Shown: positions 10,825 to 37,798, counted from the first letter of the stretch. The stretch: 64,000 bases of DNA from an uncultured Candidatus Saccharibacteria bacterium (GCA_965231075.1 OZ246412.1:553787-617786), one strand, 5' to 3'. Numbers and translations are program-made. Notes: generated from the letters alone by a model not told the origin.

Positions 10825-12072
10825 ATGTCACAACAAAATAACGATCAAATCAACGCCCTACCCGAATACGAGGTCAGGACAATGAAAGACGATCTTAATA
10901 AAGTAGAGGGAAGGGCAATTCAACCGAAATTGGTGAATTTAAAAGTACCTGAAATACAAGTTCCCAAGCCATCAATAAAAATTGATGAACCACCAAAGGA
11001 ATTGCCGATTGTGGATAAAATCGAAAAACCCACAGAGCCCACAATTAAGACGTTTCCCAAACAATCGTTATCAGAAGAAATTGACAACATTCTTAACGCC
11101 CCTGGATTTGAACCAAAGCCTGAGCCCAAATCAGAGATTAAGCCAAGCGTCGAATCAAAAACAAACACACCGGAAATCGTAACACCAAAAATAACAATCA
11201 ATGAGACCAAAAAATCCTCTTTACCGGATATTGAGGATTTTATTGTCCCCGCGCCACCCGTTCCACCGCCCGCGCCCACACCTAAACCTAAACCATTAAT
11301 GCCTGTCCCTCCGATCACTGAACCGATTTCAATTGAAACCACGAAGTTTATAAAATCTGAAAATAACGAAATAGAAAGAACGATTAAAACCCACAAAACA
11401 AAAAAAATATTAACAATTCTGGGAATTATAATTATTGTGGGATTGATTGCTGGACTTGGATATTGGTTAATTACAAAACCTAGACCAACAGAACCAGAAC
11501 CACCAGTTATTGAACAACCAGAAACTCCTGCATCGTTAATTAGAGTTGATGAGACTAAGGTCTTTAAAATGGAAAATAATTCTTCCCTAGTCGATATCTT
11601 AATCAATGAAGAAAATTCTGGACAACCAGAAAAGACTCTTAAGAGAATTGTGCCAACAAAAATCAATGGAAAGGCTTTGTCTCTAAATGAATTGATCCAA
11701 GAATTACAAATCTATATTCCTCCATATACACTGGGAGAATTAAATAAAAATTACACATTAGTTGCATATAAACAAGGCAACCAACAGAGGTTAGGATTGA
11801 TTATTGAGATAAAGAACTTGCCAGGATTCATCGAAAAATCCAGATCGTGGGAGAATACAATGACTTGGAACTTCCAAGGAATATTTTTAAATCATCAGCC
11901 CAACAACCTGACCGTGAAAGGATTTTCCGACTACAAATACAACGAAATAAATGTTCGCTTCGTTAATCTCGCTGTCCCCGAACTGTCTATCGATTACGCG
12001 ATTCTGAATAATTTATTTGTGGTATCTACTAGTCGAGAATCGATGCGCAATATCATCGATAGATTAAAATAG
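10825..12072 (+). CDS. Hypothetical Pro-rich protein with a single central TM helix
   Basis: 415-aa ORF tightly following pnp; PxP-rich N-terminal half; TM segment ILTILGIIIIVGLIAGLGYWLI. Confidence 0.5.
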   Translation: MSQQNNDQINALPEYEVRTMKDDLNKVEGRAIQPKLVNLKVPEIQVPKPSIKIDEPPKELPIVDKIEKPTEPTIKTFPKQSLSEEIDNILNAPGFEPKPEPKSEIKPSVESKTNTPEIVTPKITINETKKSSLPDIEDFIVPAPPVPPPAPTPKPKPLMPVPPITEPISIETTKFIKSENNEIERTIKTHKTKKILTILGIIIIVGLIAGLGYWLITKPRPTEPEPPVIEQPETPASLIRVDETKVFKMENNSSLVDILINEENSGQPEKTLKRIVPTKINGKALSLNELIQELQIYIPPYTLGELNKNYTLVAYKQGNQQRLGLIIEIKNLPGFIEKSRSWENTMTWNFQGIFLNHQPNNLTVKGFSDYKYNEINVRFVNLAVPELSIDYAILNNLFVVSTSRESMRNIIDRLK

Positions 12073-12237
12073 GAACTTGTCCTATAACTGCGGGGTGGGG
12101 ATAACTTGTTTAGAACATTATTTTAGAAAAACAAAATTCGTCGATGTCAAGAGCAAAAACACTCTATTTTGGCTCTAAAAATACAATATTGTCTCGAAAC
12201 CTTGATATTGACGAAATCAACAAAACTTATCCACAAT

Positions 12238-13773: not shown

Positions 13774-13810
13774 TTATCCACAATATTAACTATTGACAAA
13801 CATATCATAT

Positions 13811-14188
13811 ATGATATATACTGGTTCTAGTGAATATAAAGTAAAATTTTATACAGATCCAAAAACCGGAAAGAGTTTTGTGTTCGAATATATTGATGAT
13901 TTGGACGAAAAACAAAAAGCCAAAGTATTAAAATTTATTGAATTTTTAAGAGAACACGATGGCGTATTGGACGAACCGTTTTCAAAACACATTAAGGGCA
14001 AAATTCGCGAATTAAGAGTTGATTTCGGTAAAAACAAACATAGAATATTTTATTTTACGTTTATCAATAAGAACATTGTACTGCTTCACGCGTTTTTGAA
14101 GCACACACAGAAGACTCCCCTTAGTGAAATACGGACTGCCGAAAATAACTATTATATTGTAGTTAATAATCCAAAAATTTATGAATAA
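13811..14188 (+). CDS. HigB/RelE-superfamily toxin-like protein (phage Gp49-like, DUF891 type)
   Basis: C-terminal KIRELRVDFGKNKHRIFYFTF...IVLLHAFLKHTQKTPLSEIRTAE matches the Gp49/HigB-like family; followed by an overlapping HTH gene. The ORF track starts at a TTG at 13793; the ATG at 13811 is preferred. Confidence 0.55.
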   Translation: MIYTGSSEYKVKFYTDPKTGKSFVFEYIDDLDEKQKAKVLKFIEFLREHDGVLDEPFSKHIKGKIRELRVDFGKNKHRIFYFTFINKNIVLLHAFLKHTQKTPLSEIRTAENNYYIVVNNPKIYE

Positions 14189-15718: not shown

Positions 15719-15750
15719 AAAAAATCCCCCGCAACACGGGGGATTTTTTA
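15719..15750 (-). terminator. Hairpin with flanking A/T runs (terminator of the LysM/CHAP gene; bidirectional-capable)
   Basis: aaaaaatccccc-gcaacac-gggggatttttt. Confidence 0.6.
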
Positions 15751-16749
15751 GTAAATGTATCCTCTAATTCGCCAATCATCTTGATTTAAGATTCTCACAC
15801 GCTTAATACCGCGCCCCAAACTCATTTCAGAAATTGTAATTGTGTCTTCTCCTACTGCCTCAACATAAGCAACGTGTCCATAAACGCTTTCTTTAGTTGA
15901 AACGATCGCCCCAACTCTTGGTTCGGTTCCGGTTTCAAATCCATATTGTGGGGCTTTTCCTAACCAGGTCTTAGCATCTCCATTCCAAGGAATGTATCGT
16001 TTCTGGGCAACGTACCAGGTACATTGACCCCAGGGAAATCCATGACTCGTATCTCCATATGGTCCAAGCTCTTCGGGAGTATAAGAAGCATATGATCTTG
16101 CTTTTGCAGGGATAAATTGAATTGGTTTTTGGCCGTCGGGAATAATAATTTCTTGTCCAATAGCCAAGACGCCATTGGCTGGCAAACCATTTAAATCGAT
16201 AGTTTTCTCTGTGTTTCCTTTATACGTTTTAACAATACTATCTAATGTATCGCCCTTCTTAACCGTATGCTTTACTCCTGATACTGGCAAAATTGATAAT
16301 TTTTGACCAACTTTAATCTTACTGGTTGGAGTTAAATCGTTGGCCCAAAGTAAGGTGTTGGTTGTAATTCCAAACATCGAAGCAATTTCTGAAGGAATGT
16401 CCCCTTGCTGAACTTCGTAGACAATGACACTGCCTCTGCCCGACGAAGAAAACGGCGAAACCGCTGCCGGAGAATTATGGGCAACAAAAGAATTGTCTTG
16501 TATTAAGACACTAGAATCTTTAAATGACTCATCGACAAAATATGACTCTTCGACTATTTCCTCGTAAGGATTTAAATAGTCCGAAGCATACACACAAGAA
16601 CCGCTTATGGCTGAATTTATGTCTTCTTGGTCTGTATCAAAATTACCATTAAAACTTCCGGCGATCGTTGTGGTTACGAATAAAACCATTAAGACAATAA
16701 AAATAACTGCTGCTACCCTAAAATATGGGGTTTTGAGCAGTTTTCCCAT
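15748..16749 (-). CDS. Secreted peptidoglycan hydrolase with LysM repeats and a C-terminal CHAP domain
   Basis: N-terminal TM/signal; two LysM-like segments (VQQGDIPSEIASMFGITTNTLLWANDL; HTVKKGDTLDSIVKTY); CHAP-like C-terminus (GQCTWYVAQKR...GHVAYVEAV). Confidence 0.8.
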   Translation of the reverse strand: MGKLLKTPYFRVAAVIFIVLMVLFVTTTIAGSFNGNFDTDQEDINSAISGSCVYASDYLNPYEEIVEESYFVDESFKDSSVLIQDNSFVAHNSPAAVSPFSSSGRGSVIVYEVQQGDIPSEIASMFGITTNTLLWANDLTPTSKIKVGQKLSILPVSGVKHTVKKGDTLDSIVKTYKGNTEKTIDLNGLPANGVLAIGQEIIIPDGQKPIQFIPAKARSYASYTPEELGPYGDTSHGFPWGQCTWYVAQKRYIPWNGDAKTWLGKAPQYGFETGTEPRVGAIVSTKESVYGHVAYVEAVGEDTITISEMSLGRGIKRVRILNQDDWRIRGYIY

Positions 16750-18944: not shown

Positions 18945-19748
18945 ATGATAGAAATCCAAAAAATTCTTAATAAATACAACACCAAACCCAATAAATTCAT
19001 GGGGCAGAATTTTTTGATTGATGAGAATGTTTTAAATAAAATTTTAGAAACTTCCAACATTAAACCAAATGACATTGTGCTAGAAATTGGTCCTGGTTTA
19101 GGAGTTTTAACGTTAGAATTAGCAAAAAAAGCTAAAAAAGTTATTGCCATCGAAAAAGATAAAGAATTATGTGAAATATTGCAAAACGTTCTAATTGCTC
19201 AAAATGTTAAAAATGTTGAAATTATCCACGACGATATCTTGCGATTAAAACAAATACAACAATTACAACATTACAAAGTCGTTGCAAATATTCCCTACTA
19301 TCTAACCTCTCTCTTGATCAGAATGTTTTTAGAAACAAATAATCGACCATCGGAAATAATTTTAATGATTCAAAAAGAAGTTGCAGAAAGAATTTGTGCC
19401 GTTCCACCAAAAATGTCCTTACTCGCCGTGTCGGTACAGTTTTACGCTAAACCGGAAATTATTTCCTTCGTTTCAAAAAATAGTTTTTATCCCGTGCCAG
19501 AAGTAGATTCGGCTATCATTAAAATCGTACCTCAAACAAAACTGGAAATCGACACAAAAAAGTTTTTTGGGATTGTGAAGAAAGGATTCGCATCAAAGAG
19601 AAAAATGTTAATTAATAATTTAAAGTCCGAATTTCAAAATCCAAATATCAAATCAATTCTTGAAAACATCGGACTAAATCCAAAAGTTCGGGCAGAAAAT
19701 TTATCGATTGACGACTGGATAAAAATCTATGAACAAACAAATCTTTAA
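18945..19748 (+). CDS. rsmA: 16S rRNA (adenine1518/1519-N6)-dimethyltransferase
   Basis: GQNFLIDENVLNKI...VLEIGPGLGVLT SAM-binding motif, NIPY motif; 267 aa. Confidence 0.9.
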   Translation: MIEIQKILNKYNTKPNKFMGQNFLIDENVLNKILETSNIKPNDIVLEIGPGLGVLTLELAKKAKKVIAIEKDKELCEILQNVLIAQNVKNVEIIHDDILRLKQIQQLQHYKVVANIPYYLTSLLIRMFLETNNRPSEIILMIQKEVAERICAVPPKMSLLAVSVQFYAKPEIISFVSKNSFYPVPEVDSAIIKIVPQTKLEIDTKKFFGIVKKGFASKRKMLINNLKSEFQNPNIKSILENIGLNPKVRAENLSIDDWIKIYEQTNL

Positions 19749-21369
19749 TCTTAAATTAAATATTATTTGGCTCTTACCGATTTTGAGCGGGTTATTATTG
19801 GTCCTATTTCCATTATTTGATTTTGGCTATCTGGTTTGGTTTTCATTGATTCCGTTGTTGTGGTTTATTTTTTCAAAATCAATCACAACAAAGAAATCGT
19901 TTCTGGGTGGACTATTAACTGGGACGATTTTTGGCGGAGGATTGTTGTTGTGGCTATTTGATACTGTACCATTCGAATTCATCGGTGTTGATAACGAAAA
20001 AGAAGTTGTGTTGGTCTTTTTTGTTTTCTTAGTTCTGTGGTTGATTCACATTATATTCATTGGATTATTCATTGGTGCTTTTTCTTGGGTGATAAAAAAA
20101 TTGTCATTGAAATTAAATTTTATCTGGCTTGTGTTTCTGATCCCCGGGGCCTGGATAGTTTTTGAATATTTGCGAGCATGGGGATTTAATGTTTTATGGC
20201 TAGGAAAAGAAACTCTGTGGAGCCCATATTGGACATGGGGGAACCTAGCATACTTTATACATAACCATTATCCTCTGACGCAAATCGCCAACATTGGCGG
20301 AATTTATTTAATTGGCTTTTTAATTGTTTTGATTAACGTGCTGTTATTTTTATTAATTTATAAATTCAAACAATCAACGCTATCTTCAAAACTATTTATC
20401 TCGATACTTGTATCCGTCGCATTGATTCTATCTTTATGGATGATTTATGGAACCCACCAACTAAATGGGCACCAAAACACAAATACAGTTAAACTAGCTA
20501 TCTTGCAAACCAATTTCGCCTCGGGAAATGAGCTAAATGCTTACAATAAATTGGCCGTGTTTAATATCATTAAAGAACTGTTTCAAAAGTTTGACAATGT
20601 CGACCAAAAACCTGATATTGTCATTGAGCCAGAAGGATTCAGTTTTGTTACAATGTCTGGGAACAATAATATCGCTAAACATATTTTGGGAGATTTTTGG
20701 GAGCCGGGTCAAATATTTGTCGAAAATCAAAAATTTTCCGATGAAGATAAAAAAACAAAATCTCGATTATTTTATCTTGACCTAGACAAAAAACAACCAA
20801 TCGCTTTTTACGATAAAACATTTTTGATGCCTAACGGAGATTATTTGCCATACATCACAGAATTATTTCTAAAAATGTATTCATTTAAATCCGATTTAAG
20901 TCAGAAATTTTTCTCTCGCGGCAGTTCTTTTAGTGTGGCTGAAACGCCAAAAGGAGTTTTAGGTGGGACGATATGCACAGGATTTATGTCGCCAAATGAA
21001 AATAGGCAAATGGCCAAAAATAAAGCAACAATCTTGATTTCGGCCTCTAGCGACGCTCCGTTTCACGGATCTAAAAAACTTTTGAATCAAATTATTGGAA
21101 TGACGAAATTCCGTGCCATAGAAAATCACCGTTATTTTGCACAAGCCACAAACATGGGATACTCTTTCTTGCTTGATTATCACGGATTAATTGTTGATAA
21201 ACCAGAAAAAATAGATAATCGTATAATAATCGTTGACGCCGAACTTTCAAATGTCGAAACCTTTTATACAAAACTCGGCGACTGGATAATTTATTTGGCG
21301 ATTTTAACACTATTGATGGTTTGGTTATCTTATTTTTTGAAAAATGTTATAATTAAATATATCAAATAA
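19729..21369 (+). CDS. lnt: Apolipoprotein N-acyltransferase-like protein (N-terminal polytopic membrane domain plus C-terminal carbon-nitrogen hydrolase domain)
   Basis: Multiple N-terminal TM helices; CN-hydrolase triad candidates IVIEPEGFSF (Glu), YDKTFLMPNGDYLPY (Lys; compare Lnt KxxLVPFGE) and GGTICTGF (Cys). Confidence 0.5.
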   Translation: MNKQIFNLKLNIIWLLPILSGLLLVLFPLFDFGYLVWFSLIPLLWFIFSKSITTKKSFLGGLLTGTIFGGGLLLWLFDTVPFEFIGVDNEKEVVLVFFVFLVLWLIHIIFIGLFIGAFSWVIKKLSLKLNFIWLVFLIPGAWIVFEYLRAWGFNVLWLGKETLWSPYWTWGNLAYFIHNHYPLTQIANIGGIYLIGFLIVLINVLLFLLIYKFKQSTLSSKLFISILVSVALILSLWMIYGTHQLNGHQNTNTVKLAILQTNFASGNELNAYNKLAVFNIIKELFQKFDNVDQKPDIVIEPEGFSFVTMSGNNNIAKHILGDFWEPGQIFVENQKFSDEDKKTKSRLFYLDLDKKQPIAFYDKTFLMPNGDYLPYITELFLKMYSFKSDLSQKFFSRGSSFSVAETPKGVLGGTICTGFMSPNENRQMAKNKATILISASSDAPFHGSKKLLNQIIGMTKFRAIENHRYFAQATNMGYSFLLDYHGLIVDKPEKIDNRIIIVDAELSNVETFYTKLGDWIIYLAILTLLMVWLSYFLKNVIIKYIK

Positions 21370-21422
21370 ATTTGATGAATATTGATCTATCTTGACATTT
21401 AAATTTTTGATATAATAAAGAT

Positions 21423-22439
21423 ATGAAAATCAAAATAAAAAAATCGCGCTTAGCTATAATTCCATTAGCAATAGTTTTTGCTATTGGATTAATTTTATTT
21501 ATCGGTGCTTTTGCAAAAAAAGATGCCTTCTCAACATATAATTTATGGGGGGCGAAACAAACAATTGTCGAATCGCAAAACCTTGATACTGATAATGATG
21601 GGTTAAAAGATTGGGAAGAAGAACTATACAAGACCGACAAATTAAATCCTGACACTGATAATGATGGGTATCTAGATGGAGAAGAAATTAACTCCGGAAA
21701 CAACCCTTTAATTAAGGCCCCTGGAGACGAGGAAATGTTTTATCCTCTTCCGTTGGGAAATCGTTATAATATCACCAATAAAATTCTAAATAGTGAATTT
21801 ATCGATTCGATACTGGAGTCGTATATAGCTCAGAAAAACGAATACATTAACGACCATCAGATTTCGTCGCCAGGTCAATACGATGCAGCGACTAAAGATA
21901 CCACTATCCAGACCATGTTTACAAGAGCAATTGCCGACGGTTATCCGAAATTAATTGAAAGCGCAAATCAAATGTTGGAAGACATGCCGGAAATTTTCAA
22001 TTTGCGGGTCGCCGATCAAGATATTGTCCTATCAGATAATAATAGTGTAGAAAATATTAATACCTATATTTCACGAGCGTCGTCAGTATTGAAATCAAAA
22101 ACATTTTTTTTGCAACAGCAAAGCTTGTCTGCTATAACAGCCGCATTTAAAGAAGGTGATTTTTCCAAAATAGATATAATTATTAAGGATAATACCAACA
22201 AAATAGATTTATTAAAAGAAATTATTGTCCCCTCTTCATGGAAAGATGTTCACAAAGAAGGATTGCAGCTCATCTTAACGATAAGAAATATTTTTATCTC
22301 GTTCCGAGATCTTCCTAATGATCCATTAAAAGCCTATGTAGCTGTAAATGAATTTGAAAAATTTCCCGAGAGATGGAATAAGTTTTTAGAAAAAGTAATT
22401 AATTTGGCGAAACAACAAAATATAGAAATTAATTTATAA
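21423..22439 (+). CDS. Secreted/anchored protein with thrombospondin-type-3-like Ca-binding repeats
   Basis: N-terminal TM/signal; DTDNDGLKDWEE and NPDTDNDGYLDGEEIN repeats; first gene of a long co-directional operon. Confidence 0.5.
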   Translation: MKIKIKKSRLAIIPLAIVFAIGLILFIGAFAKKDAFSTYNLWGAKQTIVESQNLDTDNDGLKDWEEELYKTDKLNPDTDNDGYLDGEEINSGNNPLIKAPGDEEMFYPLPLGNRYNITNKILNSEFIDSILESYIAQKNEYINDHQISSPGQYDAATKDTTIQTMFTRAIADGYPKLIESANQMLEDMPEIFNLRVADQDIVLSDNNSVENINTYISRASSVLKSKTFFLQQQSLSAITAAFKEGDFSKIDIIIKDNTNKIDLLKEIIVPSSWKDVHKEGLQLILTIRNIFISFRDLPNDPLKAYVAVNEFEKFPERWNKFLEKVINLAKQQNIEINL

Positions 22440-22443
22440 AAAC

Positions 22444-25320
22444 ATGCTCACAAAATTTCAAAAAACGATTATATTCTCATTGGTCTTTTGTCTGATGTTC
22501 GGTTTGGTCTTTAATATATTTATTATAAAACCGAAATCAGTTGAGGCGACCGACGGAGGCGCGGGATGGGTACAGGCGATTAAAGATCTGGTACTTGATG
22601 CTGTTGGCTGGGCTGTAACAGATCAAATCTTACAACCACTAAAACAAAAGATTCAAGATTGGGGCATGGGCAAAACTAGCGACGACAACAAACCATTTTT
22701 TGTTATTGACTGGAAAGAGTTTGCCAACGAAGCTTTAGATGTCGCTTCAGCAAGATTTATAGAAGAAGTGGGACTAACCAAGCTTTGTGGTCCACTAAGA
22801 ATTAGTATTGGTCAAAACCCATTGTTTACAACATATTATACTGACCAACCGAAATATAAAAATTATGCTGCCTGTACACTCGACTCTGTTATAAGTAACG
22901 TGGATTCATTTCTCGATAATCCATCGATTAGCGTTTTTGGTTGGAATGCTTGGTCAGTTTTAACACAACCAAATAATAATTTTCTGGGCGCCTACCTGTT
23001 GGCTAGTCAAAGAAGCATAGAAATCGCCAATGAGGAAGCTAAGGCCAAAGACAAAGAAGTGGCTGCTAGTGGTGGGGTGAAAAACGAGACCACCACAAAC
23101 GAAACCGATACAGATGCTTGCCTTAAAAAGTGTGATTCAGAATTTGACGTGAATAGAGAAAACAATGGTCAGCTGTGGGAAGATTGCACCGATAAATGTG
23201 AAACCACAACTAAAGGAGTCCCCACAAAAAGTTCAGTTAAAAACCTCGGTTCGACAATAAAGAAAAATATCGACGACGCTCTGGGAGCAGATATGAGTAG
23301 AATCATTAGTGCTGATGAAATTAGTGAGCTCGTTGGTGTATTTTTTAGTGCCGTTATAAACAAAGCAATCGATGGGTTGGGGTTGGTACCATCTAGTGCG
23401 AATAAAACCGCAGCAGAAGAATCTCGCGATGAAATGAATGACCTTTATTCCTATGGAGATGGCAGCAATGAGATGACCGAAGAAACAAAACAGAATATTC
23501 GTTTGTCAGTTTTAAACGGAATGCTTAAGGGCGTGCAGATGATATCTAGATCAACAGCAAAATGTGAAGACGAAGATACCATGATAACCGATTTGGATTT
23601 TAATAAAAATATTAGTGATATATACTCAGCACAATTAGAGGCGCTGTATGTGGGAACTGCAGGGGTAAATCTCAAACCGGATTTTATAGTTTTGGATTCT
23701 CCGTATGCGCCATTTTCTCTATATGGTTATGGATGGAGCAATATTCCGGGAGTTAAAATGCCAGCTAAATGCAAGAAAATAACTGCCCAGGCAGGATTAG
23801 GATCGTCTGGTTCTTGTACAAATATCGTCAGCGGTCTTGAACCAAATTATAGTCCCAACTGTAAGAGATGCATATATGATGGAAGCGAATTAAATTGTCC
23901 TCCTGCGCCGTATCCTCCGTTCAGCAGCGTATCGGGGGATGTGGTAACGCCAGTGATCCCAGACGATGCAACGATTTTAGCCAAACAAGATTTTTATAAT
24001 AAATGCATGGAATGGTATGACGTAACTAAAAATAGATGCAGTGATTGCGTGAAGAAGGCTGATGCTAAATGTAATCAGGGGGACGAAATTGAAAAACAAG
24101 CATGCATTGAAGATGTCTGTAATAATTATGATGACCTTAAGCCACACGTTGCGTCTACTATCACTAGTAGCGTCGATTTTTACAACAAATGTCTATTAGA
24201 AGAAAAAAAATCTTCCTGCTTTACTTGTCTTAAAGAATATTTTATGCCTGCTTCATACTGTGACACTATGACTGAGTTTACAGCCAGATCATTAATCAAA
24301 TATCCTGCTGTCGTACTAGCGACAAATGTTGACGACGGTCGTTCTGTGGGAAGATACGACTCTACTTTTCAGGAAGCATTTGAAGATAGAGCTACCGAAT
24401 GTAATAACGATAAAAACAGAGGAGCAGCAATCGAAGTAAGCCTAATCTGCAGAATTATGCCAGAGTTCAAACATAATGGCATACAAATCTGTAGACAATA
24501 TTGTATGGGAAGCGGAATGACTGAAATAGAATTGAACGACATTTTAGATAATCGGCCAACTGATGGAGACTGTAATAACAAAAAAATAGGGATTGGTGGC
24601 TCAATTAACGTTTGGGATGTTGTTAAGAATGGAAACTTTCAACAACTAAGCAAATGTTGTGCAGCCACTAACACCACAAGCGTAAAAAAATATTCTACTT
24701 GTATAGGAGCATCGCAGCCCGCCGAAATCTGTACTTATGCGGTGCCACCAGAACAAGAGCCTTGGTGTTATTGTAGTGAAGGATATCGTCCACTGGGATT
24801 TACAAGAACCGGATTTCCACGATCTAGTGGATTGGGTGGGGATTGTAGTAATACTTCAGTTATTGATTGGACTACCAGTGGAATATCAGCGATACCATCT
24901 GGAAGAGAGGTTTACATATATACCAGCAATCAACCAGTAGACAGTGATATATATTATATTGCTAAGGGAGAATGCACCGAGAAAGACAATAATTGGGAGA
25001 ATGCCACTGGTCAAGGACTCGAAGATGGACAAGTTGACGAAGCTTATCATAATTTCACTATGAGTGAAATAACTCAACCATCGAGCGTAATTTGTTCCGG
25101 AAGTGGCGCAAATAGTGATTTTCAGTGCAATGAGGCAGCGGGACAATCGAGTCTCAATCTGGGGGTTTACCACACACAATTATTAGGACTTGGAGCCCCC
25201 GAATCTTCCACAGGGGTCCATATGTGTGCAAAATGCGAATCGTCTGATTCCGGATATCCGAGTTATGGATACAAAGATAAGTCAGGATATACGTCGGATC
25301 AATGCACTGGCAAACAATAA
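22444..25320 (+). CDS. Large (958 aa) secreted cysteine-rich protein, hypothetical surface component of the T4SS-like operon
   Basis: Signal/TM at the N-terminus; more than 60 Cys in clustered CxxC/CxnC patterns across the length; overlaps the next gene's start. Confidence 0.6.
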   Translation: MLTKFQKTIIFSLVFCLMFGLVFNIFIIKPKSVEATDGGAGWVQAIKDLVLDAVGWAVTDQILQPLKQKIQDWGMGKTSDDNKPFFVIDWKEFANEALDVASARFIEEVGLTKLCGPLRISIGQNPLFTTYYTDQPKYKNYAACTLDSVISNVDSFLDNPSISVFGWNAWSVLTQPNNNFLGAYLLASQRSIEIANEEAKAKDKEVAASGGVKNETTTNETDTDACLKKCDSEFDVNRENNGQLWEDCTDKCETTTKGVPTKSSVKNLGSTIKKNIDDALGADMSRIISADEISELVGVFFSAVINKAIDGLGLVPSSANKTAAEESRDEMNDLYSYGDGSNEMTEETKQNIRLSVLNGMLKGVQMISRSTAKCEDEDTMITDLDFNKNISDIYSAQLEALYVGTAGVNLKPDFIVLDSPYAPFSLYGYGWSNIPGVKMPAKCKKITAQAGLGSSGSCTNIVSGLEPNYSPNCKRCIYDGSELNCPPAPYPPFSSVSGDVVTPVIPDDATILAKQDFYNKCMEWYDVTKNRCSDCVKKADAKCNQGDEIEKQACIEDVCNNYDDLKPHVASTITSSVDFYNKCLLEEKKSSCFTCLKEYFMPASYCDTMTEFTARSLIKYPAVVLATNVDDGRSVGRYDSTFQEAFEDRATECNNDKNRGAAIEVSLICRIMPEFKHNGIQICRQYCMGSGMTEIELNDILDNRPTDGDCNNKKIGIGGSINVWDVVKNGNFQQLSKCCAATNTTSVKKYSTCIGASQPAEICTYAVPPEQEPWCYCSEGYRPLGFTRTGFPRSSGLGGDCSNTSVIDWTTSGISAIPSGREVYIYTSNQPVDSDIYYIAKGECTEKDNNWENATGQGLEDGQVDEAYHNFTMSEITQPSSVICSGSGANSDFQCNEAAGQSSLNLGVYHTQLLGLGAPESSTGVHMCAKCESSDSGYPSYGYKDKSGYTSDQCTGKQ

Positions 25321-27572
25321 TGGTAATAAAATTTATGAAAACAAACATGAAATCAAAATATAAAATTTCAACAATAACAATGATCGTAAGTATTGTTATG
25401 TTGGGAGTTATTGTCCCTGCGTATGCCCACGCAGGAGTCTTTAGTTTTATCGGAGATATCTTAGGAAATGTGGCCGCGGACTTGTTGTCGCTCTTAGTTG
25501 GTCTGATTCAGGGATTGTTGGGATTGTTAATAAAAGTTGGAGCTGCTTTTTTTGAGACAATGTTGAATTTTGGTTTCACTAGGAATTCTAGCGTTGATAT
25601 CGTTAAAACCGGATGGACGGTAACTAGAGATTTTGCAAATATGTTGTTTATACTCTTTATGATTGTGATTGCGTTTGCGACAATATTAAGAATAGAGGGC
25701 TACGGTATAAAAAAATTATTACCGAAGGTTATTGGTATAGCTCTTTTAATCAACTTCAGCATGGTACTATGTTCGGTGGTTGTTGACTTCAGCAATATTA
25801 CCGCCAATTTTTTTGTTAAGGATATAAACACCAAACTAAATGGCAAAACCATGGGAGCAGTGTTTGTGGATAGCATGAATCTATCCAAAATATTAACGTC
25901 TCAGATTGATTATAGTGGTTGTGACAAAACTTATCGAGAGGAACTATCGTCTTGTGATGAAATGAGAAAAACCATGGTGCCGGGTGATTATCAAAAATGT
26001 AGAACAAACGCCCAAAACGTAAGGGTTGCTTGTGAACAACAACTAGCAATAGCCGCACAAAACGCAGCTAAGCCCAAAAACGGATTAATTGAACTTATGG
26101 ATGTATTAATCTCTGGAATCTTTGGATCAATATTGTTGCTAATTGTAGTATTCACATTCTTCGCTGGAGGAGTCCTCTTGTTGATTAGAATGATATCCAT
26201 ATGGTTCTTGATCATGATCGTTCCCTTAGTTTTTATTTGCTACATAATACCGTCACTAAACTCTAATTGGAAAAAGTGGTGGGGAAAATTTCTCAATTGG
26301 TGTATTTTTGCACCTGCCTACAGTTTCTTTATCTGGTTAGCAATCAAAGTATCTATAGAACAATCCAATAAGAAAATCGTTGCAGGCATATCTAGTGCCA
26401 ATAATTATATATCAGACCCCGGAGTAACTAATAATCCGTTTATATTTAACCCTGGTCAAAATTTAATAAGTTTTGCATTTATCATTGCCCTTTTGGTCGG
26501 TGGGCTAATTGTAGCTAAATCTCTCGGAGTGTATGGAGCAGACACTGTGATGAAAATTGCAACCAACGCTAGAAAGGGTGCGACCGATTGGGCAAAGAGA
26601 AAAAGTACTGGCGCAGCTAAAGAGTTGGGCGCTAGAGGTGCTGGGTCATTGAAACAGGGGGTGGGGTCAATACTAAAAATGAAATACAGCCCATTTAAGA
26701 GTACGGGCAGGAGAATGGAAGCAGGTGGCAAGTTAATGAAACAGGACTCTGCTAGTGCCAAGGAAGTTGAAGCGTACAAGAAACGATTAGCTGTAATGTC
26801 GAGGGAAGATATGGTGGCCGAAATAAATTCCCCGCATTTACGAAAATCATTTAAATTAGCAGCCATACAAGAGGCTCAAAAGCGTGGAGACTTATCCAAA
26901 ACTGACAACCTCGACGCGATAAGATCATCTGTCAACACCCTCAAGGCTTACGGATACGATAAAAGCTCTTCGGATCTTCAGAATAATAGAGCAGACGCCA
27001 TTGAGGACAGAACAAAACAAAAAGAAATTGTCGAAAAAATGGCAAAAGAAGGTAAGCTTGGAGAGTTGTCTCTGCAAGCGATAAAGGATGAAAACGTAAC
27101 AGCATTATTGGCAGAGGTGTGTGAGCCACAACAACTCGAAGCAATAAGAAACACTTCTCGTCAACATGCTGAAGCTCTAGATAAGGCCCTAGAAGATATT
27201 ACCAATCCATTAAATGCAGCTGCCATGACAGCTAAACATATAAATCCTGCTCTAGAGAAAATACAACACGCTTATGCGGCTCAAACGGGCAAACTTGATA
27301 GATTAACCGCTGGCCCAACAGGTACGGCGCAATCATTTATAAAAGAGGTTGGGGCAAATTACGCCCTTAAGCGTGTTAAATCTGTCCCCGCAACAGCAAT
27401 GCCCGATATCGTGCCAAATATTCCCGTAAATAAACTTAAATCAATGATAGCAGAAATGGAAGATACTGCCGCAAAAGAAGTTATAACATACATCAAACAT
27501 ACACTGCCAAATACGCACGATTTATGGAAGCTTGTAGACAAAGATGAGTCCCTAAAGAATATCGCCCCATAA
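25302..27572 (+). CDS. Polytopic membrane protein, VirB6/TrbL-like candidate with a C-terminal coiled-coil extension
   Basis: Signal peptide, then at least 6 hydrophobic helices (aa ~40-420), then ~330 aa of hydrophilic K/E/A-rich tail; position in the operon before VirB3/VirB4-like genes. Confidence 0.4.
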   Translation: MHWQTIMVIKFMKTNMKSKYKISTITMIVSIVMLGVIVPAYAHAGVFSFIGDILGNVAADLLSLLVGLIQGLLGLLIKVGAAFFETMLNFGFTRNSSVDIVKTGWTVTRDFANMLFILFMIVIAFATILRIEGYGIKKLLPKVIGIALLINFSMVLCSVVVDFSNITANFFVKDINTKLNGKTMGAVFVDSMNLSKILTSQIDYSGCDKTYREELSSCDEMRKTMVPGDYQKCRTNAQNVRVACEQQLAIAAQNAAKPKNGLIELMDVLISGIFGSILLLIVVFTFFAGGVLLLIRMISIWFLIMIVPLVFICYIIPSLNSNWKKWWGKFLNWCIFAPAYSFFIWLAIKVSIEQSNKKIVAGISSANNYISDPGVTNNPFIFNPGQNLISFAFIIALLVGGLIVAKSLGVYGADTVMKIATNARKGATDWAKRKSTGAAKELGARGAGSLKQGVGSILKMKYSPFKSTGRRMEAGGKLMKQDSASAKEVEAYKKRLAVMSREDMVAEINSPHLRKSFKLAAIQEAQKRGDLSKTDNLDAIRSSVNTLKAYGYDKSSSDLQNNRADAIEDRTKQKEIVEKMAKEGKLGELSLQAIKDENVTALLAEVCEPQQLEAIRNTSRQHAEALDKALEDITNPLNAAAMTAKHINPALEKIQHAYAAQTGKLDRLTAGPTGTAQSFIKEVGANYALKRVKSVPATAMPDIVPNIPVNKLKSMIAEMEDTAAKEVITYIKHTLPNTHDLWKLVDKDESLKNIAP

Positions 27573-27578
27573 TCTTTT

Positions 27579-27989
27579 ATGCAATTTCAAGTACCACAAT
27601 TTATTGACATTGAGGACAAGGTTATTGGTCCCCTAACGATTAAACAATTCCTATATCTTTTAGCGGGCGGTGTTATTGTGTTTATCCTTTACAAAACATT
27701 GAATCTATTTGCGACAATTGTCCTGGGAGTTCCCATAGTGGGTATTGCTATTGCTCTTGCTTTTGCAAAAATTGGCAACCAGCCGTTTATTAATTTCTTA
27801 AAAAATTTCATTGGATTTGTTAAAAGACCGGATTTCTATGTTTGGAAAAAACCGATAGGAAAAAATAAGATTGTTGAACCAAACGAAGATATCGAAATCA
27901 TCCAAAAAGTGCCAGCCAAAACAAAGCTTAATCCAGAAGCTAAAGATAGTTTACAGGACATGGGATGGAAAGTAGAAATCGAAAAATAA
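27579..27989 (+). CDS. Small two-TM protein, VirB3-like candidate
   Basis: 136 aa; two adjacent TM helices (LYLLAGGVIVFILY...ATIVLGVPIVGIAIALAFA); immediately upstream of VirB4-like ORFs. Confidence 0.35.
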   Translation: MQFQVPQFIDIEDKVIGPLTIKQFLYLLAGGVIVFILYKTLNLFATIVLGVPIVGIAIALAFAKIGNQPFINFLKNFIGFVKRPDFYVWKKPIGKNKIVEPNEDIEIIQKVPAKTKLNPEAKDSLQDMGWKVEIEK

Positions 27990-27993
27990 TATT

Positions 27994-28626
27994 ATGCCAC
28001 AAGTCAAATTACCAAAAAACGCACCCGAGGTGCAAAAATTTGTTGAGGTTCAGGAAATCAAAAACGGAATGGCGATAATGAAAGACAACAGCATCAGATC
28101 TGTGTGTGCTTGTTCGTCAATAAATTTTGATTTATTAAGTGCAACTGAACAAGAAGCCGTCATCGCTAGATTCCAAGAGTTTTTAAATTCCGTCGACTTC
28201 CCTCTTCAAATTATTGTCGCCTCTCGTCATTTTAAAGTTGAGGGATACCTTAACCAGATTCGTGAGTTGGAAAAAAAACAGACCAATGAACTGTTAAAAA
28301 TTCAAACCAATGAGTATATAAATTTTGTGGAAAGTTTTGTAGAATTTGAGAATATTATGAATAAATCTTTCTACGTCATTGTTCCGTTTAACATTGTTGA
28401 ATCGCACAACGAAAATCTATCTACAAAGATTAAAAACGTTATCAGTTCTAGTAAGCCCAAAAAAGAAAGATTTGAGACAGAGAAGTTGAATCAATATAAA
28501 GCTCAATTAGACCAGAGAATTAATTTAGTAGCTCAAGGATTACAGGCATTAGGGATTAAAACTATTCCACTCAATGACGAACAGTTAACCCAGCTATATT
28601 TCGAGTTCTACAACATAGAGAAATAA
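27994..28626 (+). CDS. Hypothetical soluble protein, possibly the split N-terminal domain of VirB4
   Basis: 210 aa with no TM; its length added to the 598-aa ATPase ORF gives ~808 aa, the size of canonical VirB4. Confidence 0.4.
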   Translation: MPQVKLPKNAPEVQKFVEVQEIKNGMAIMKDNSIRSVCACSSINFDLLSATEQEAVIARFQEFLNSVDFPLQIIVASRHFKVEGYLNQIRELEKKQTNELLKIQTNEYINFVESFVEFENIMNKSFYVIVPFNIVESHNENLSTKIKNVISSSKPKKERFETEKLNQYKAQLDQRINLVAQGLQALGIKTIPLNDEQLTQLYFEFYNIEK

Positions 28627-28630
28627 ATTC

Positions 28631-30427
28631 ATGTCATTATTTAAGAAATCAAAACCTAAAAACCAAGGAAATGTTTCTGAAATTGAAGAAATTCAGGAAA
28701 TTGAGAACAGCTTAGCAGACACAATTTCACCATCTGCCCTCCAAATTACATCTAATTATATCCAGATTGGCGAGAAATTTGCCCAAACATTTTTTATTAT
28801 CACTTATCCCCGATTTCTCACCGTAAATTGGTTATCGCCAATCATCAATTTAGATAGAATATTTAATTTGGCGATGTTTGTGCACCCGACCGATACCGGA
28901 ATAATTTTAAAAAAACTTCGACGCAAAATTACGCAAATTGAATCTCAAATCAATTCTGAACAAGAAGCAGGAAAAATCAGGAACCCTATATTAGAAACTG
29001 CCCGAGGCGATGTCGAAGAAATGAGAGATCGACTGATTCAAGGCACAGAAAAGTTTTTTAAATATTCCCTCTATATCACTATTTTTGAAGACTCTGTGGA
29101 TAAACTTAAAGAAGCCGAGGAACAGATCATGGGACTGTTTGAGGCAAAAATGATTTATGCCCGACCGGCGCTGTTTCAACAACAGATTGGTCTAAATTCA
29201 ACGTTACCATTTGGCAAAGATCATTTGTTTATCACAAATTCTATGAATACTGCACCTCTTTCTACGGTATTTCCATTTGTATCGTCAAATCTATCGTCCA
29301 ACAAAGGTATTCTTTATGGCATTAATCGCCATAACAATAGTCTGATCATTTTTGATAGGTTCTCCATGGAAAACGGCAACATGGTTATTTTTGGCAAGTC
29401 CGGAGGAGGAAAATCTTATGCTGTGAAAGTGGAGATATTGAGGTCGTTAATGTTCGGAACAGACGTAATTGTTGTAGACCCAGAGAATGAATACCAGCAT
29501 TTGGCCGAAACCGTCGATGGTGCATATTTTAAAATATCATTAACTTCTGATAGCCACATTAATCCCTTTGATTTGTCTTTGCCCGATGAAGATGAAACCA
29601 CCGAAGATGTCTTGCGGTCAAAAATAATGGATTTAATTGGTCTCTTAAGGGTGGCTCTGGGGGAACTGACCCCAGAAGAAAATTCTATTTTAGACAGAGC
29701 ATTAACTGAAACCTACGCATCAAAAGATATTACGTTTCAATCTGATCTTAAGAACGTTACCCCGCCAGTTATGCAGGACCTGGAAACAGTTTTAAATAAC
29801 ATGAAAGGGGGTGATAGGATCGCTAAACGACTTGAGAGATACACTAAGGGCAGTTTTTCTGGATTTTTAAATCAACCCACAAATATTGATGTTAATAAGA
29901 ATCTCATTGTGTTTAGCACGCGCGATATGGAAGACGAATTAAAACCAGTGGCAATGTATCTGATCTTACAATATATTTGGAATCTAATTCGTTCTCAAAT
30001 GAAAAAACGCATTATGATCGTCGACGAGGCGTGGTGGATGTTGAAAAGCGAAGCTGGCGGGTCATTTCTTCATGGCATTGCTAAAAGATGTAGAAAATAC
30101 TGGCTAGGACTAACCACGATCACTCAAGATATTCCTGATTTCATGAATTCCCCTTATGGTAAACCGATTGTCTCTAACTCTTCAATCCAAATACTTTTTA
30201 AACAATCCCCCGCGACAATTGATGTCGTACAACAAACATTTAATCTAACTGATGAAGAAAAATACCTTCTTTTACAAGCCGGTGTCGGCGAGGGAATTTT
30301 CTTTGCCGGATTAAAACATGCTGCTATAAAAGTAGTCGCATCCTACACCGAAGATCAAATCGTAACAACTAATCCAGAACAGATTTCTAAAATTAATCAA
30401 GCGAAAGAAGAATTAAAAACAATATGA
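28631..30427 (+). CDS. virB4: VirB4/TrbE/CagE-family type IV secretion ATPase
   Basis: Walker A FGKSGGGKS, Walker B IMIVDEAWWM, downstream LTTITQD motif; no TM segments. Confidence 0.8.
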   Translation: MSLFKKSKPKNQGNVSEIEEIQEIENSLADTISPSALQITSNYIQIGEKFAQTFFIITYPRFLTVNWLSPIINLDRIFNLAMFVHPTDTGIILKKLRRKITQIESQINSEQEAGKIRNPILETARGDVEEMRDRLIQGTEKFFKYSLYITIFEDSVDKLKEAEEQIMGLFEAKMIYARPALFQQQIGLNSTLPFGKDHLFITNSMNTAPLSTVFPFVSSNLSSNKGILYGINRHNNSLIIFDRFSMENGNMVIFGKSGGGKSYAVKVEILRSLMFGTDVIVVDPENEYQHLAETVDGAYFKISLTSDSHINPFDLSLPDEDETTEDVLRSKIMDLIGLLRVALGELTPEENSILDRALTETYASKDITFQSDLKNVTPPVMQDLETVLNNMKGGDRIAKRLERYTKGSFSGFLNQPTNIDVNKNLIVFSTRDMEDELKPVAMYLILQYIWNLIRSQMKKRIMIVDEAWWMLKSEAGGSFLHGIAKRCRKYWLGLTTITQDIPDFMNSPYGKPIVSNSSIQILFKQSPATIDVVQQTFNLTDEEKYLLLQAGVGEGIFFAGLKHAAIKVVASYTEDQIVTTNPEQISKINQAKEELKTI

Positions 30428-30864
30428 TGGTTGAATCAACTCTGCAGGAACAAGTGCAAACACAAGAATTAAATCAGAGTCGATCTGATTCGCGCTTGCA
30501 TGGAAAAAACCAAACGACTACAACGCAGTCTTCAACCTCGACATTAGAATTTGTGGCGCTTCTACCATTAGCAATATTTGCCGACTTGATCGGCGGACTG
30601 GATTTGACTGTATTTGGTTCAGTTATTGTCAGAATAATCAACATCCCTATAGTGCTTGTCTTGTGGTTGTGGAGAGTGTTTAAACATGGTCCCGGGCTAC
30701 AAAAAAATGATTATACCTACCAATTATTCGCAACCTTTTTAATCGAAATGTCCCCCTTTGGAATCGTCCCGACATGGACTACGTTTGTGATTTATGCTTA
30801 TTTAAAAGACAAAAACATAGCCAAGAATACCTTGGGTCGAAAATTAAACAAAACAAATAATTAA
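30424..30864 (+). CDS. Small membrane protein (3 TM), hypothetical T4SS-operon component
   Basis: Q/T-rich N-terminus followed by three hydrophobic helices; translationally coupled to virB4 by an overlap. Confidence 0.4.
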   Translation: MMVESTLQEQVQTQELNQSRSDSRLHGKNQTTTTQSSTSTLEFVALLPLAIFADLIGGLDLTVFGSVIVRIINIPIVLVLWLWRVFKHGPGLQKNDYTYQLFATFLIEMSPFGIVPTWTTFVIYAYLKDKNIAKNTLGRKLNKTNN

Positions 30865-30868
30865 TATT

Positions 30869-31603
30869 ATGAAAAAACAAATCTGTCTTATTATAATTTC
30901 GTTGTCAGTGTTTTTACCGATAATTGGTTGCGCGTCAGAAGAGTATATTCCGTTAATACAAAACTTATTGCCATCAACAACATCGGCTGGCACTCAAGAC
31001 CAGCCCTCGATTAAGTTAAATATGCTTGAACTTGCCTGGAGCGCTGAGACATATGCTCCACTAGACTATCAAGGGAGGACGTTGCCAATTAAAGGGTCAA
31101 TGGTTGATGTGGACGCGATAATATCTATCACAGGAGAAAATACAGGCAATCTAAAATTCAGTTGGTTTTTAGATAATACGTTTCAAGAATCTAAATCTGG
31201 ATACGGCAAAACCTCGTTTAGATTTGGGGTTAGGAAATTCAACGGCGACTTTCATAATGTTTTAGTAAAGATTTTCAATGAAGATAGATCATTCTATATT
31301 GAAAAATCGATAGAGATACCGATAGCCCGATCAGAGGTTGTTTTAAAACAATCCAATATGAATCAACTCTCCATTCTTGCGAAGCCGTATTTTTTCAGTA
31401 TAGATAAATTGACCGACCTAGAATTCCAGTGGACACTAGAGGGGCAAGAGCCTATCATTTCATCTAATTATAATGCTGATATACTAGATATAAATATTAA
31501 AAACAAAAATCTTCCGGCGTCTGAATATCAATTAGGACTTGTTGTTAAAAATCTGAGAAACACAATACAAAGCGCAAATAGTTCGATTAAAATTAACTTA
31601 TAA
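30869..31603 (+). CDS. Lipoprotein, hypothetical
   Basis: Signal peptide with lipobox LPIIGC-AS. Confidence 0.5.
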   Translation: MKKQICLIIISLSVFLPIIGCASEEYIPLIQNLLPSTTSAGTQDQPSIKLNMLELAWSAETYAPLDYQGRTLPIKGSMVDVDAIISITGENTGNLKFSWFLDNTFQESKSGYGKTSFRFGVRKFNGDFHNVLVKIFNEDRSFYIEKSIEIPIARSEVVLKQSNMNQLSILAKPYFFSIDKLTDLEFQWTLEGQEPIISSNYNADILDINIKNKNLPASEYQLGLVVKNLRNTIQSANSSIKINL

Positions 31604-31608
31604 TAAAA

Positions 31609-31971
31609 ATGAAAAAATCCATATTCTTTATAGTCACAATCTTTGTGCTTTTAATAATAGCTCAGAATTGTCTAGCGCTAGAATTGTTGTTAGACTATCC
31701 GACTATAAGCGGAAAAGATTTGGGCGACACTAGTAGTATTCCAGATTTGATAAGCTATATTTATAAATTCGCTCTAGGCGCTTGTGGTATAACTGCCTTG
31801 GTGTCTATTATAATTGGAGCTGCACAATATGCTTTCTCTGCTGGCGACTCTTCTAAGGCAGGAGATGCTAAAGACAGAATAACTTCGGCATTGTTAGGAG
31901 TTTTAATTTTATTGTTTTCGTATCTGATTCTAAACACAATTAATCCAGACCTAGTAAGTTTGAAATTTTAA
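31609..31971 (+). CDS. VirB2/TrbC-like pilin candidate
   Basis: 120 aa; cleavable signal peptide followed by two hydrophobic helices separated by a short polar loop (GACGITALVSIIIGAAQYAFSAGD...ALLGVLILLFSYLIL), the classic T4SS pilin architecture. Confidence 0.4.
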   Translation: MKKSIFFIVTIFVLLIIAQNCLALELLLDYPTISGKDLGDTSSIPDLISYIYKFALGACGITALVSIIIGAAQYAFSAGDSSKAGDAKDRITSALLGVLILLFSYLILNTINPDLVSLKF

Positions 31972-31989
31972 TAAATATTATAAAATCAT

Positions 31990-33165
31990 ATGAACACAAA
32001 ACTTAAAAAGGTATTAATCATCATCGTGATAATCTTGATTGTCGCATTAGCAGGACTTCTGGTCTACAATTTTGTTATTAGAAAGAACATTGAAGACGAA
32101 AACAATAATGGCAATCTCCCCGGAGAACAACCAAACATCGACAATCAGGATCAAAATCAAGACCAGGGTGACACCGAACAACTAATATCAGAACGAAAGA
32201 TTATTGCAATTAGCACTGATCCCGTATTATCTCCAACAATCACCAACAATAAAACAAGTGTGATTTATTATTCGAAAACAAATGGCAATATTATTCAATC
32301 CGATTTCGATGGATTAAATAAAATTACGATATCTGATACAAATCTCGATAATCTCCTACAGGTATTTTGGGCGCAGAGCAAAGACAAAACCATAACCGTG
32401 TTTCAGGACAATATTGGTAACACTAGCAAATATTATTATAATATTCCTACTAAAAAATCGTTTCCTCTAAATAAGTTTATAAATTATATCTCTTGGTCTT
32501 CAGACGGCTCTAAAATCGTTTATCAATATCAAAACGATGATACGGGCGAAAACACAATCAGTGTATCGAATCCTGACGGATCAAGATATTCTGTAATTCT
32601 TAATACTCGAATGAAAAATCTAATCATCAATTGGCCCAAAGGATCAACTATTTACCTACAAGAAAGACCGTCAGGATTGGCGCAGAGTAGCTTATACTCA
32701 TTAAACTATCTATCTAAAGCATTTAATAAGGTAGTATCGAATCTTTATGGATTTAGTCTGAAATGGTCATCTGGTGGCAATAAAATACTTTATTCTAAAA
32801 CAAATTCCGAAGGAGAAAATATCGGCTTATACATTGCAAACAGTAATGGGTCTAGTGAAAAAGCATTGGATGTTCAAACATTAATCGAAAAGTGTGCATG
32901 GTCCCAAGACACAAGATACATCTTCTGCGCAATACCAAATAATATTTCTGATGCAAAAATACTGCCTGATGATTTTTATAAGGGGGTATTCGTCAGCGAT
33001 GATGAATTCTATAAAATCAACATTGAAACTGGTGAAAAAACCAATCTGTTTGATAAAAGCTTAGAAGAATCATTTGACGCAGACGAGTTGTTCCTTTCGC
33101 CGAATGAAGATTATTTATTCTTTGTAAATAAAAATAACGGACTATTATACCGTATAAAAATTTAA
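31990..33165 (+). CDS. Membrane-anchored TolB-like beta-propeller (PD40/WD40-like repeats) protein
   Basis: N-terminal TM anchor; repeated SxDGSKIVY / WSSGGNKILYSK motifs. Confidence 0.55.
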   Translation: MNTKLKKVLIIIVIILIVALAGLLVYNFVIRKNIEDENNNGNLPGEQPNIDNQDQNQDQGDTEQLISERKIIAISTDPVLSPTITNNKTSVIYYSKTNGNIIQSDFDGLNKITISDTNLDNLLQVFWAQSKDKTITVFQDNIGNTSKYYYNIPTKKSFPLNKFINYISWSSDGSKIVYQYQNDDTGENTISVSNPDGSRYSVILNTRMKNLIINWPKGSTIYLQERPSGLAQSSLYSLNYLSKAFNKVVSNLYGFSLKWSSGGNKILYSKTNSEGENIGLYIANSNGSSEKALDVQTLIEKCAWSQDTRYIFCAIPNNISDAKILPDDFYKGVFVSDDEFYKINIETGEKTNLFDKSLEESFDADELFLSPNEDYLFFVNKNNGLLYRIKI

Positions 33166-33180
33166 CAAATTATATTCTAA

Positions 33181-33214
33181 AAGAGCTCTCAATTTTATCG
33201 GAGCTCTTTTTTGT
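33181..33214 (+). terminator. Rho-independent terminator ending the 21423-33165 operon
   Basis: aagagctc-tcaattttatcg-gagctctt followed by tttt. Confidence 0.7.
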
Positions 33215-37661: not shown

Positions 37662-37798
37662 ATGATTTAGCTTAACAATAAATAAAGACTAGGTCAATCA
37701 GACCCCACTAAATCAATTAACAGATAATACACATTTTATTCACAAAAATGACTATTGATTTTGTTTTTGTTGTATAAATTTCGTGATATAATTTGACT

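Follow-up and report, generated by a model that had tools for sequence, protein, structure and literature searches.

The stretch analysed here (64,000 nucleotides from an uncultured Candidatus Saccharibacteria bacterium, GCA_965231075.1 OZ246412.1:553787-617786; the window) carries at positions 21423-33165 ten plus-strand open reading frames (ORFs), o1 to o10, which we interpret, with a probability of about 0.85, as the genes of an origin-proximal chromosomal type IV secretion system (T4SS) of a Patescibacteria (candidate phyla radiation, CPR) bacterium of the Paceibacteria- or Portnoybacteria-like kind, with a VirB4 that probably belongs to a phylum-specific clade nested within the monoderm conjugation systems of mating-pair formation class FATA (MPF-FATA). 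The operon is the already described Patescibacteria T4SS, and is neither a new secretion system nor a mobile element; what is new is modest, namely the conservation of the accessory partners with the core, and the large protein family to which o2 belongs.

The assignment is anchored by o6, which scores 375.9 bits against the NCBIfam family conju_CD1110 (cut-off 325, E-value 4e-112, profile positions 176-728 of 752) and 100.7 bits against the Pfam family P-loop_TraG (9.5e-29), and which matches the VirB4 C-terminal domain 4ag5 at 3.6e-43 and TrwK at 7e-8 in the PDB. Direct reading finds the Walker A (GKSGGGKS), Walker B (IMIVDEAWW) and TITQD motifs intact, and o6 is a predicted VirB4-family ATPase that comprises the central and C-terminal ATPase domains. 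Located 4 nt upstream, o5 contains no transmembrane (TM) segment and covers CD1110 profile positions 2-163 as well as positions 105-266 of the VirB4_plasma (Mycoplasma VirB4) profile. It also has a precomputed assignment to the TraC-like Pfam family PF26593 and a match to NCBIfam TrsD/TraD at 7.8e-8 that is under the curated cut-off, one relative matches VirB4_TrbE_N weakly, and the family profile returned only noise from the PDB. This protein is predicted to be a cytoplasmic, separately encoded VirB4 N-terminal domain of the TrsD/TraC-like type. A preliminary description of the stretch had suggested a split virB4 from the combined length of the two ORFs, and the split is real because o5 and o6 jointly span a full-length VirB4; it is not a local event, however, since a separate N-terminal gene is the ancestral TrsD-type arrangement, common to the phylum and to the pGO1 subclass. 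Next to o5, the o4 protein exceeds the Pfam PrgI cut-off (35.4 bits against 27, 1.6e-8), with a hydrophobic hairpin at aa 19-61 by hydropathy, and it is a predicted PrgI-family, VirB3-like small membrane protein. The VirB4-family ATPase and the 2-TM VirB3-like protein of the preliminary description therefore both pass the profile searches.

The same description had placed a polytopic VirB6/TrbL-like protein with a long tail at 25302 and a VirB2/TrbC-like pilin at 31609, and both identifications are borne out. The presence of a VirB6/TrbL-like polytopic protein near virB4 is accounted for by o3, the C-terminal tail of which is limited to the seven closest loci and is not a separate conserved gene elsewhere. 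The o9 protein scores 28.6 bits against Pfam T4SS_pilin PF18895 (cut-off 26.6, 1.5e-6) and matches the NCBIfam Mbov_0395 pilin-like family at 9.6e-5; it has a signal peptide, two hydrophobic helices with a charged loop between them and a conserved C-terminal INPxL, and is a predicted Sec-exported VirB2-like T4SS pilin, with no sequence-level match to solved pilins in a PDB profile search. In many relatives (for example L004:5510-6133, L006:12997-13815 and L029:7133-7909 of the loci described below), the pilin runs for 80-300 Cys-rich residues beyond INPxL, with some of the ORF lengths perhaps inflated by upstream start choice, whereas o9 ends directly after INPxL.

The coordinates of the ten tightly packed or overlapping genes were all confirmed (Table 1). 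Successive gaps are 4, -19 (or -1), 6, 4, 4, -4, 4, 5 and 18 nt, the alternative second value arising from the o3 start, which is 25302 in the ORF list and 25320 in public gene calls. By hydropathy, o5 and o6 have no hydrophobic segment, and each of the other eight proteins has either a signal or anchor sequence or several TM segments. The arrangement of the ten genes is not due to chance, because the same order recurs in dozens of independent genomes. Upstream of o1 is a promoter-like element with an extended -10 that stops 6 nt before the o1 ATG. It is one of only three perfect TTGACA/TATAAT pairs in the 64 kb, where 0.32 would be expected, and the combination TTGACA and TGnTATAAT at 13-14 nt spacing is kept 5' of the o1 orthologue in three of the four relatives examined (L001, L030 and L006). 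The spacing is thus 13-14 nt and not 17, and in L001 the -10 likewise ends 6 nt before the ATG; this geometry suggests a leaderless transcript (one with a very short or absent leader), an unusual promoter or a regulator site. At the other end, the single terminator that had been noted is a hairpin followed by a U-run, which folds at -12.9 kcal/mol (z = -3.4; none of 200 shuffles folded equally well) and sits between convergent genes, overlapping the 3' end of a minus-strand Wzy_C gene, so it probably terminates transcription from both the o10 side and the Wzy_C side. A consensus terminator scan overlooked it because its loop is 10 nt long. Internal terminators that would divide the genes among several operons are not indicated by that scan, with ten sites found against 10.0 expected, and plausible limits for the predicted operon are ~21392 and ~33215.

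Table 1. Features of the T4SS operon and selected neighbouring genes in the window, with the number of loci, out of 52, in which a homologue was found (lower bounds).
Feature	Coordinates	Strand	Length	Loci	Description
RNA-turnover genes	253-1980 (-), 4422-5861 (-), 8081-8596, 8709-10820				RNase J, CCA/poly(A) polymerase family, NYN nuclease, PNPase
LysM-CHAP gene	15748-16749	-			possible VirB1-type cell-wall hydrolase; two LysM and CHAP (Pfam)
promoter-like element	21392-21416	+			TTGACA, 13 nt, extended -10 TGaTATAAT
o1	21423-22439	+	338 aa	25	predicted TSP3 protein
o2	22444-25320	+	958 aa	24	Cys-rich exported protein
o3	25302-27572	+	756 aa	41	membrane protein: aa 1-~460 polytopic, extended VirB6/TrbL-like; aa ~470-756 a hydrophilic, helical C-terminal tail
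o4	27579-27989	+	136 aa	45	predicted PrgI/VirB3-like protein
o5	27994-28626	+	210 aa	49	predicted VirB4 N-terminal domain
o6	28631-30427	+	598 aa	51	predicted VirB4-family ATPase
o7	30424-30864	+	146 aa	27	protein with ~3 TM segments
o8	30869-31603	+	244 aa	28	two-domain lipoprotein
o9	31609-31971	+	120 aa	24	predicted VirB2-like pilin
o10	31990-33165	+	391 aa	38	TolB-like propeller protein
intrinsic-terminator-like hairpin	33179-33210 (listed to 33215 as a feature)				11-bp stem, 10-nt loop, A-tract before, U-tract after

A scan of one genome per species, covering 185,579 species genomes, gave 52 loci with a VirB4 relative, and all 52 are in metagenome-assembled genomes of Patescibacteria/CPR, with VirB4 identities of 48-91% and labels that include Paceibacterota, Portnoybacteria, Yanofskybacteria, Harrisonbacteria, Liptonbacteria, Berkelbacteria and others. 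Homologues of the remaining proteins were sought with tblastn and iterative hidden Markov model searches over all ORFs of these loci, and the resulting counts are lower bounds, many of the loci being short contigs. The gene order is shared across many Patescibacteria genomes, and in most of the long loci the succession pcrA-ksgA-o1-o2-o3-o4-o5-o6-o7-o8-o9-o10-(yidC) is kept, near dnaA. Wherever a homologue of o1 was found it is immediately 5' of o2, that of o4 is directly 5' of o5 in 45 of the 52 loci, that of o7 is directly 3' of VirB4 in 27, and the homologues of o10 extend to Berkelbacteria-labelled loci. Public gene calls for three distant o2 relatives give a neighbourhood of KsgA, a TSP3/o1-like protein, an o2-like protein, TrbL, PrgI, a TraC-like protein and VirB4. 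The five accessory genes (o1, o2, o7, o8 and o10) co-occur with the core across many lineages, and are conserved components of the system and not random genes. As a separate observation, the VirB4 gene of one relative (L044:7337-11065) encodes 1,242 aa, the extra length being due to an intein that interrupts the ATPase domain and contains a LAGLIDADG homing endonuclease (Pfam Intein_splicing 5.9e-19, LAGLIDADG_3 4.7e-20); such an insertion fits a conserved, indispensable gene.

The chromosomal setting is one of core housekeeping genes. Genes for PNPase, ComM (12169-13773), PcrA, KsgA (18945) and Lnt are found 5' of the operon, and genes for the Wzy_C protein, a flippase, Jag and YidC are found 3' of it on the other strand, with dnaA at 37793, dnaN at 39386 and 4.6 kb between the operon and dnaA. 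The GC content is flat (0.34-0.39 within the operon region, 0.34-0.40 outside). Pfam scans of the sizeable ORFs in the window detected no relaxase, type IV coupling protein (T4CP/VirD4), VirB8-11 or integrase family, in agreement with the preliminary description, which saw no relaxase, VirD4 or VirB8/9/10/11, and Pfam and NCBIfam profile scans gave no match to the VirB8/PrgL family among the operon proteins. The system is considered not to be a DNA-conjugating machine because no relaxase or coupling protein is in the window and because its site is among core housekeeping genes. The earlier view of a non-conjugative machine that probably acts on a partner agrees with the published one, but did not recognise that the stretch comes from a Patescibacteria genome, a group for which exactly this system is on record (PMC12102498, PMC10633639).

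In the survey of Quinonero-Coronel et al. 2025 (PMC12102498), VirB4 is present in 2,417 of 3,035 Patescibacteria genomes, and nearly all of the proteins form one clade within MPF-FATA. The most frequent partner is TrsD; virB4 also has PrgI/VirB3, VirB6 and PF18895/VirB2-like pilins in its vicinity, and is often close to dnaA, dnaN, ksgA, rnpA and rpmH, notably in Paceibacteria; inheritance within classes is near-vertical, relaxases are found in only 103 of the 3,035 genomes, and T4CP genes are mostly distant from virB4. The text of that paper has no match for TolB, TSP3 or propeller, and it is silent on TSP3, propeller and lipoprotein partners. The experimentally studied member is the Southlakia epibionticum cluster SEML1_0006-0019, which transposon sequencing showed to be essential for epibiotic growth (Wang et al. 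2023, PMC10633639), and whose tabulated products are VirB6-like, NTF2-like and PrgI proteins, a 293-aa protein without annotation where TrsD would be expected, VirB4, proteins of the lysozyme-like and Ig-like kinds, and six pilins. The window operon is similar to the Southlakia and other Patescibacteria systems in its core of VirB6-like, PrgI/VirB3, TrsD-like, VirB4 and PF18895 pilin proteins, in the lack of an adjacent relaxase or coupling protein, in its chromosomal position by ksgA and dnaA/dnaN and in its monoderm CPR host. The Southlakia cluster, however, has a tandem of six pilins and a second VirB6-like protein, as well as an NTF2-like protein, and VirB4 there is followed by lysozyme-like or PEGA proteins; the window locus has a single pilin together with the TSP3 protein, o2, the 3-TM protein, the two-domain lipoprotein and the TolB-like propeller.

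Among better-known systems, the operon can be compared with MPF-FATA (PrgH-PrgI-PrgJ of pCF10, TrsC-TrsD-TrsE of pGO1/pSK41 and CD1110 of CTn2), with which it shares the order VirB6-VirB3-VirB4, a VirB4 over the CD1110 equivalog cut-off, a TrsD-like separate N-terminal protein and membership of the PrgI family. It differs from these in that no relaxase, T4CP, VirB8-like protein of the PrgL/TraM type or PrgB-type adhesin was detected in the operon, in possessing a VirB2-like pilin, which the Gram-positive systems lack, and in being core chromosomal and not part of a mobile element. The diderm VirB/Trw (R388) and Dot/Icm systems differ in that VirB5, VirB7, VirB8, VirB9, VirB10, VirB11 and VirD4 were not detected here and there is no outer membrane; to R388 TrwI the sequence identity is only 15%. 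The Bordetella Ptl, Brucella VirB, Helicobacter pylori ComB and archaeal Ced systems resemble the window system in operating without a relaxase, and some of them without a coupling protein, and Ced and ComB provide precedent for inward transport, but the relationship to these four is a generic VirB4-family similarity (CedB gives 52.7 bits against a cut-off of 700), and their envelope parts and hosts differ.

The accessory proteins were recognised in the preliminary description as a TSP3-repeat protein, a Cys-rich secreted protein, a lipoprotein and a TolB-like propeller, and each of these characterisations stands. The o1 protein scores 31.9 bits against Pfam TSP3_bac (cut-off 25), with two Ca-binding TSP3 repeats, one N-terminal hydrophobic segment and a helical C-terminal domain; it is predicted to be membrane-anchored or secreted, and its family profile matched nothing in the PDB past the TSP3 repeats. 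The o2 protein, with 41 Cys residues in total, consists of a conserved exported N-terminal core (aa ~36-320) with three conserved Cys, followed by ~640 Cys-rich, lineage-specific residues that are present only in the nearest relatives. No Pfam family covers the core and it has no PDB match, and word-indexed searches with the sequence and with a profile gave two matches each; the family becomes visible only when representatives are searched exhaustively with the core by phmmer, where 2,279 clusters pass a limit of E<=1e-3 and 590 of them E<=1e-10. The C-termini of individual family members are variable and adhesin-like (Ig-like, F5/8 type C or DUF4215), and we propose that o2 is a surface or host-contact component. 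An identity as VirB5 or pilus-tip adhesin was considered and rejected, as o2 does not have the VirB5/TraC-like helical fold. In five loci o1 and o2 are fused as a single ORF (L016:2361-4655, L018:2928-5180, L023:3276-5531, L044:1448-3331 and L045:730-2976), and because of this Rosetta-stone evidence the two proteins are taken to act together.

Alignment and hydropathy indicate that o7 crosses the membrane ~3 times with its N-terminus in the cytoplasm, and show a conserved Asp in the first TM segment and the motif ExxPxxxxLPxxT; none of the 26 members scanned matches a Pfam family. The o8 protein has a lipobox (..PIIGC) and two tandem homologous domains of ~90 aa (hhalign probability 91%, E 9.5e-7), which are probably Ig/PKD-like beta-sandwiches; weak PKD_3/BiPBP_C matches were found by Pfam in two of 28 family members, and nothing significant was found with the family profile in the PDB. 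In o10, an N-terminal membrane anchor and a low-complexity linker precede a TolB-like beta-propeller, as a profile of 36 homologues matches TolB propeller domains in the PDB at 2e-19 over the propeller only, and NCBIfam propeller_TolB is matched at 24.9 bits (cut-off 343, 8.8e-6, profile positions 183-418 of 418). The protein shares with TolB of the Tol-Pal system a TolB-type propeller, but an anchor replaces the TolB N-domain and there are no tol-pal genes nearby and no Pal/TolA context, and o10 was rejected as a genuine TolB. Paralogues of the ten proteins were not found elsewhere in the window, save for two weak matches to the o10 propeller profile (E ~4e-6), at 10825-12072 (+), which has no Pfam family, and at 54086-55126 (+), which is a DUF3048 protein. 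Tentatively, and at less than even odds, the accessory proteins o1, o2, o7, o8 and o10 could together be a CPR-specific module that spans the envelope, contacts the host and takes the place of VirB5 and VirB7-10. In that case the o2 family, with its conserved disulfide-bonded core and variable Ig, lectin or Cys-rich C-termini, would be a new kind of T4SS protein of the surface or tip, and host specificity would be set by an exchangeable C-terminal domain.

Directly 5' of the lipoprotein-encoding operon is the Lnt gene (19729-21369, LNT_N and CN_hydrolase), a position conserved in L001, L013, L014, L024 and L030. Lnt is usually tied to diderm lipoprotein sorting, which makes its presence in a presumed monoderm worthy of mention. 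The LysM-CHAP gene is divergent from pcrA and 4.7 kb 5' of the operon, and in L054 and L055 a LysM-Peptidase_M23 gene occupies its position. CHAP/LysM VirB1-like genes go with virB4 specifically in Paceibacteria (PMC12102498), but whether the hydrolase is tied to the operon is uncertain, and it could equally be a housekeeping autolysin. The RNA-turnover genes of Table 1 are within 20 kb of the operon, and are of interest given a preprint that links PNPase and T4SS to host-RNA feeding, though the proximity may be coincidence. An origin-proximal gene at 49286-50956 (-) encodes a PilB-like T2SSE ATPase of the type IV pilus kind, a gene at 45949-47508 (-) encodes a secreted protein with PKD and lamin-tail domains, and between ComM and a NUDIX gene there is a Gp49/HigB-like toxin-family gene (13793-14188 (+), Pfam Gp49 1.3e-22) that may be half of a toxin-antitoxin pair.

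By analogy with the R388/VirB systems, a VirB4 hexamer of o5 and o6 would dock on PrgI and on the VirB6-like platform, and would pull the membrane-inserted pilin out so that it polymerises into a tube across the cell wall. The lipoprotein and the propeller, and perhaps the LysM-CHAP hydrolase, could by the same kind of analogy scaffold or clear the passage through the wall, standing in for the absent VirB7-10, and the o1/o2 pair, with its variable adhesin-like C-termini, would be exposed on the surface, where it meets the host cell. The machine is most likely a contact-dependent conduit between epibiont and host that serves an obligate episymbiotic lifestyle. Reviews describe the role of the Patescibacteria T4SS as unknown, and their suggestions are that it delivers effectors or that its pilus is a conduit, either for uptake or for signalling (PMC12857230, PMC11665869). 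According to a 2026 preprint (OT8), a cultivated member takes up host RNA and has tubular structures, which may be T4SS pili, where it meets its host; our literature search found no electron cryotomography of a Patescibacteria T4SS. As a rough apportionment that we infer, uptake of host macromolecules or nucleic acids is the leading candidate, although it falls short of even odds, export of effectors is a credible but somewhat weaker candidate, and transport in both directions, or another activity, is less probable again. Import, export and adhesion alone are not separated by the sequence data.

One alternative to a conduit is that the operon makes an adhesive or structural surface filament only, a VirB4-powered attachment pilus bearing the o1/o2 adhesin with nothing passing through it. 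In its favour, the pilin, the VirB6 platform and the ATPase are not joined by a coupling protein that would recruit substrates, the C-termini of the o2 family are variable in the manner of adhesins, and conjugative pili are chiefly attachment organelles (PMC12857230). However, these bacteria already have type IV pili for adhesion and motility (PMC10633639), and the window contains the PilB-like ATPase noted above; lack of a T4CP does not prevent Ptl and Brucella VirB, for example, from translocating proteins; and the essentiality in Southlakia together with the cytoplasm-depleted hosts of the OT8 preprint suggests transfer of material, so that attachment alone is unlikely. Slightly less likely still is a machine dedicated to competence, which would take up free or host DNA as H. 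pylori ComB and archaeal Ced do. Such a machine would suit bacteria that cannot make nucleotides, an idea raised for CPR bacteria in PMC11665869, as well as the presence of ComM in the window and the absence of relaxase and T4CP, as in ComB, and o6 does match the Ced import ATPases weakly (CedB 2.8e-14, CedD 2e-8, both far under the cut-off). These matches nevertheless reflect generic VirB4-family similarity, with CD1110 the best family at 376 bits, and transformation in Southlakia needs type IV pili and ComEC; deletion of comEC there ends competence and not viability, whereas the T4SS is essential, which makes the two functions separable (PMC12857230).

The operon could also be the part of an integrated conjugative element or plasmid that forms the mating pore, active or decayed and with its relaxase and coupling protein beyond the window. 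This would account for nearest non-CPR families that are conjugation proteins (CD1110 of CTn2, TrsD of pGO1/pSK41, PrgI of pCF10) and for T4CP genes that are often far from virB4 (PMC12102498), but we reject it as very improbable, given the flat GC, a 64-kb window with no integrase, relaxase, T4CP or element-type repeats, ten ORFs of which none is broken and in which the motifs are conserved, a housekeeping synteny (pcrA-ksgA 5', yidC/dnaA 3') that stays the same even where the VirB4 proteins are only ~50% identical, and the scarcity of relaxases and near-vertical inheritance in the published survey.

The Patescibacteria T4SS is among the few machines known to be essential for episymbiosis in a radiation that holds a large share of bacterial diversity. 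Within that radiation, the window locus represents the Paceibacteria side, where experiments are nearly nil, with a clean and compact system that has one pilin, and its accessory proteins are targets for complex structure prediction, for the interpretation of electron cryotomography and for the comparison of host range.

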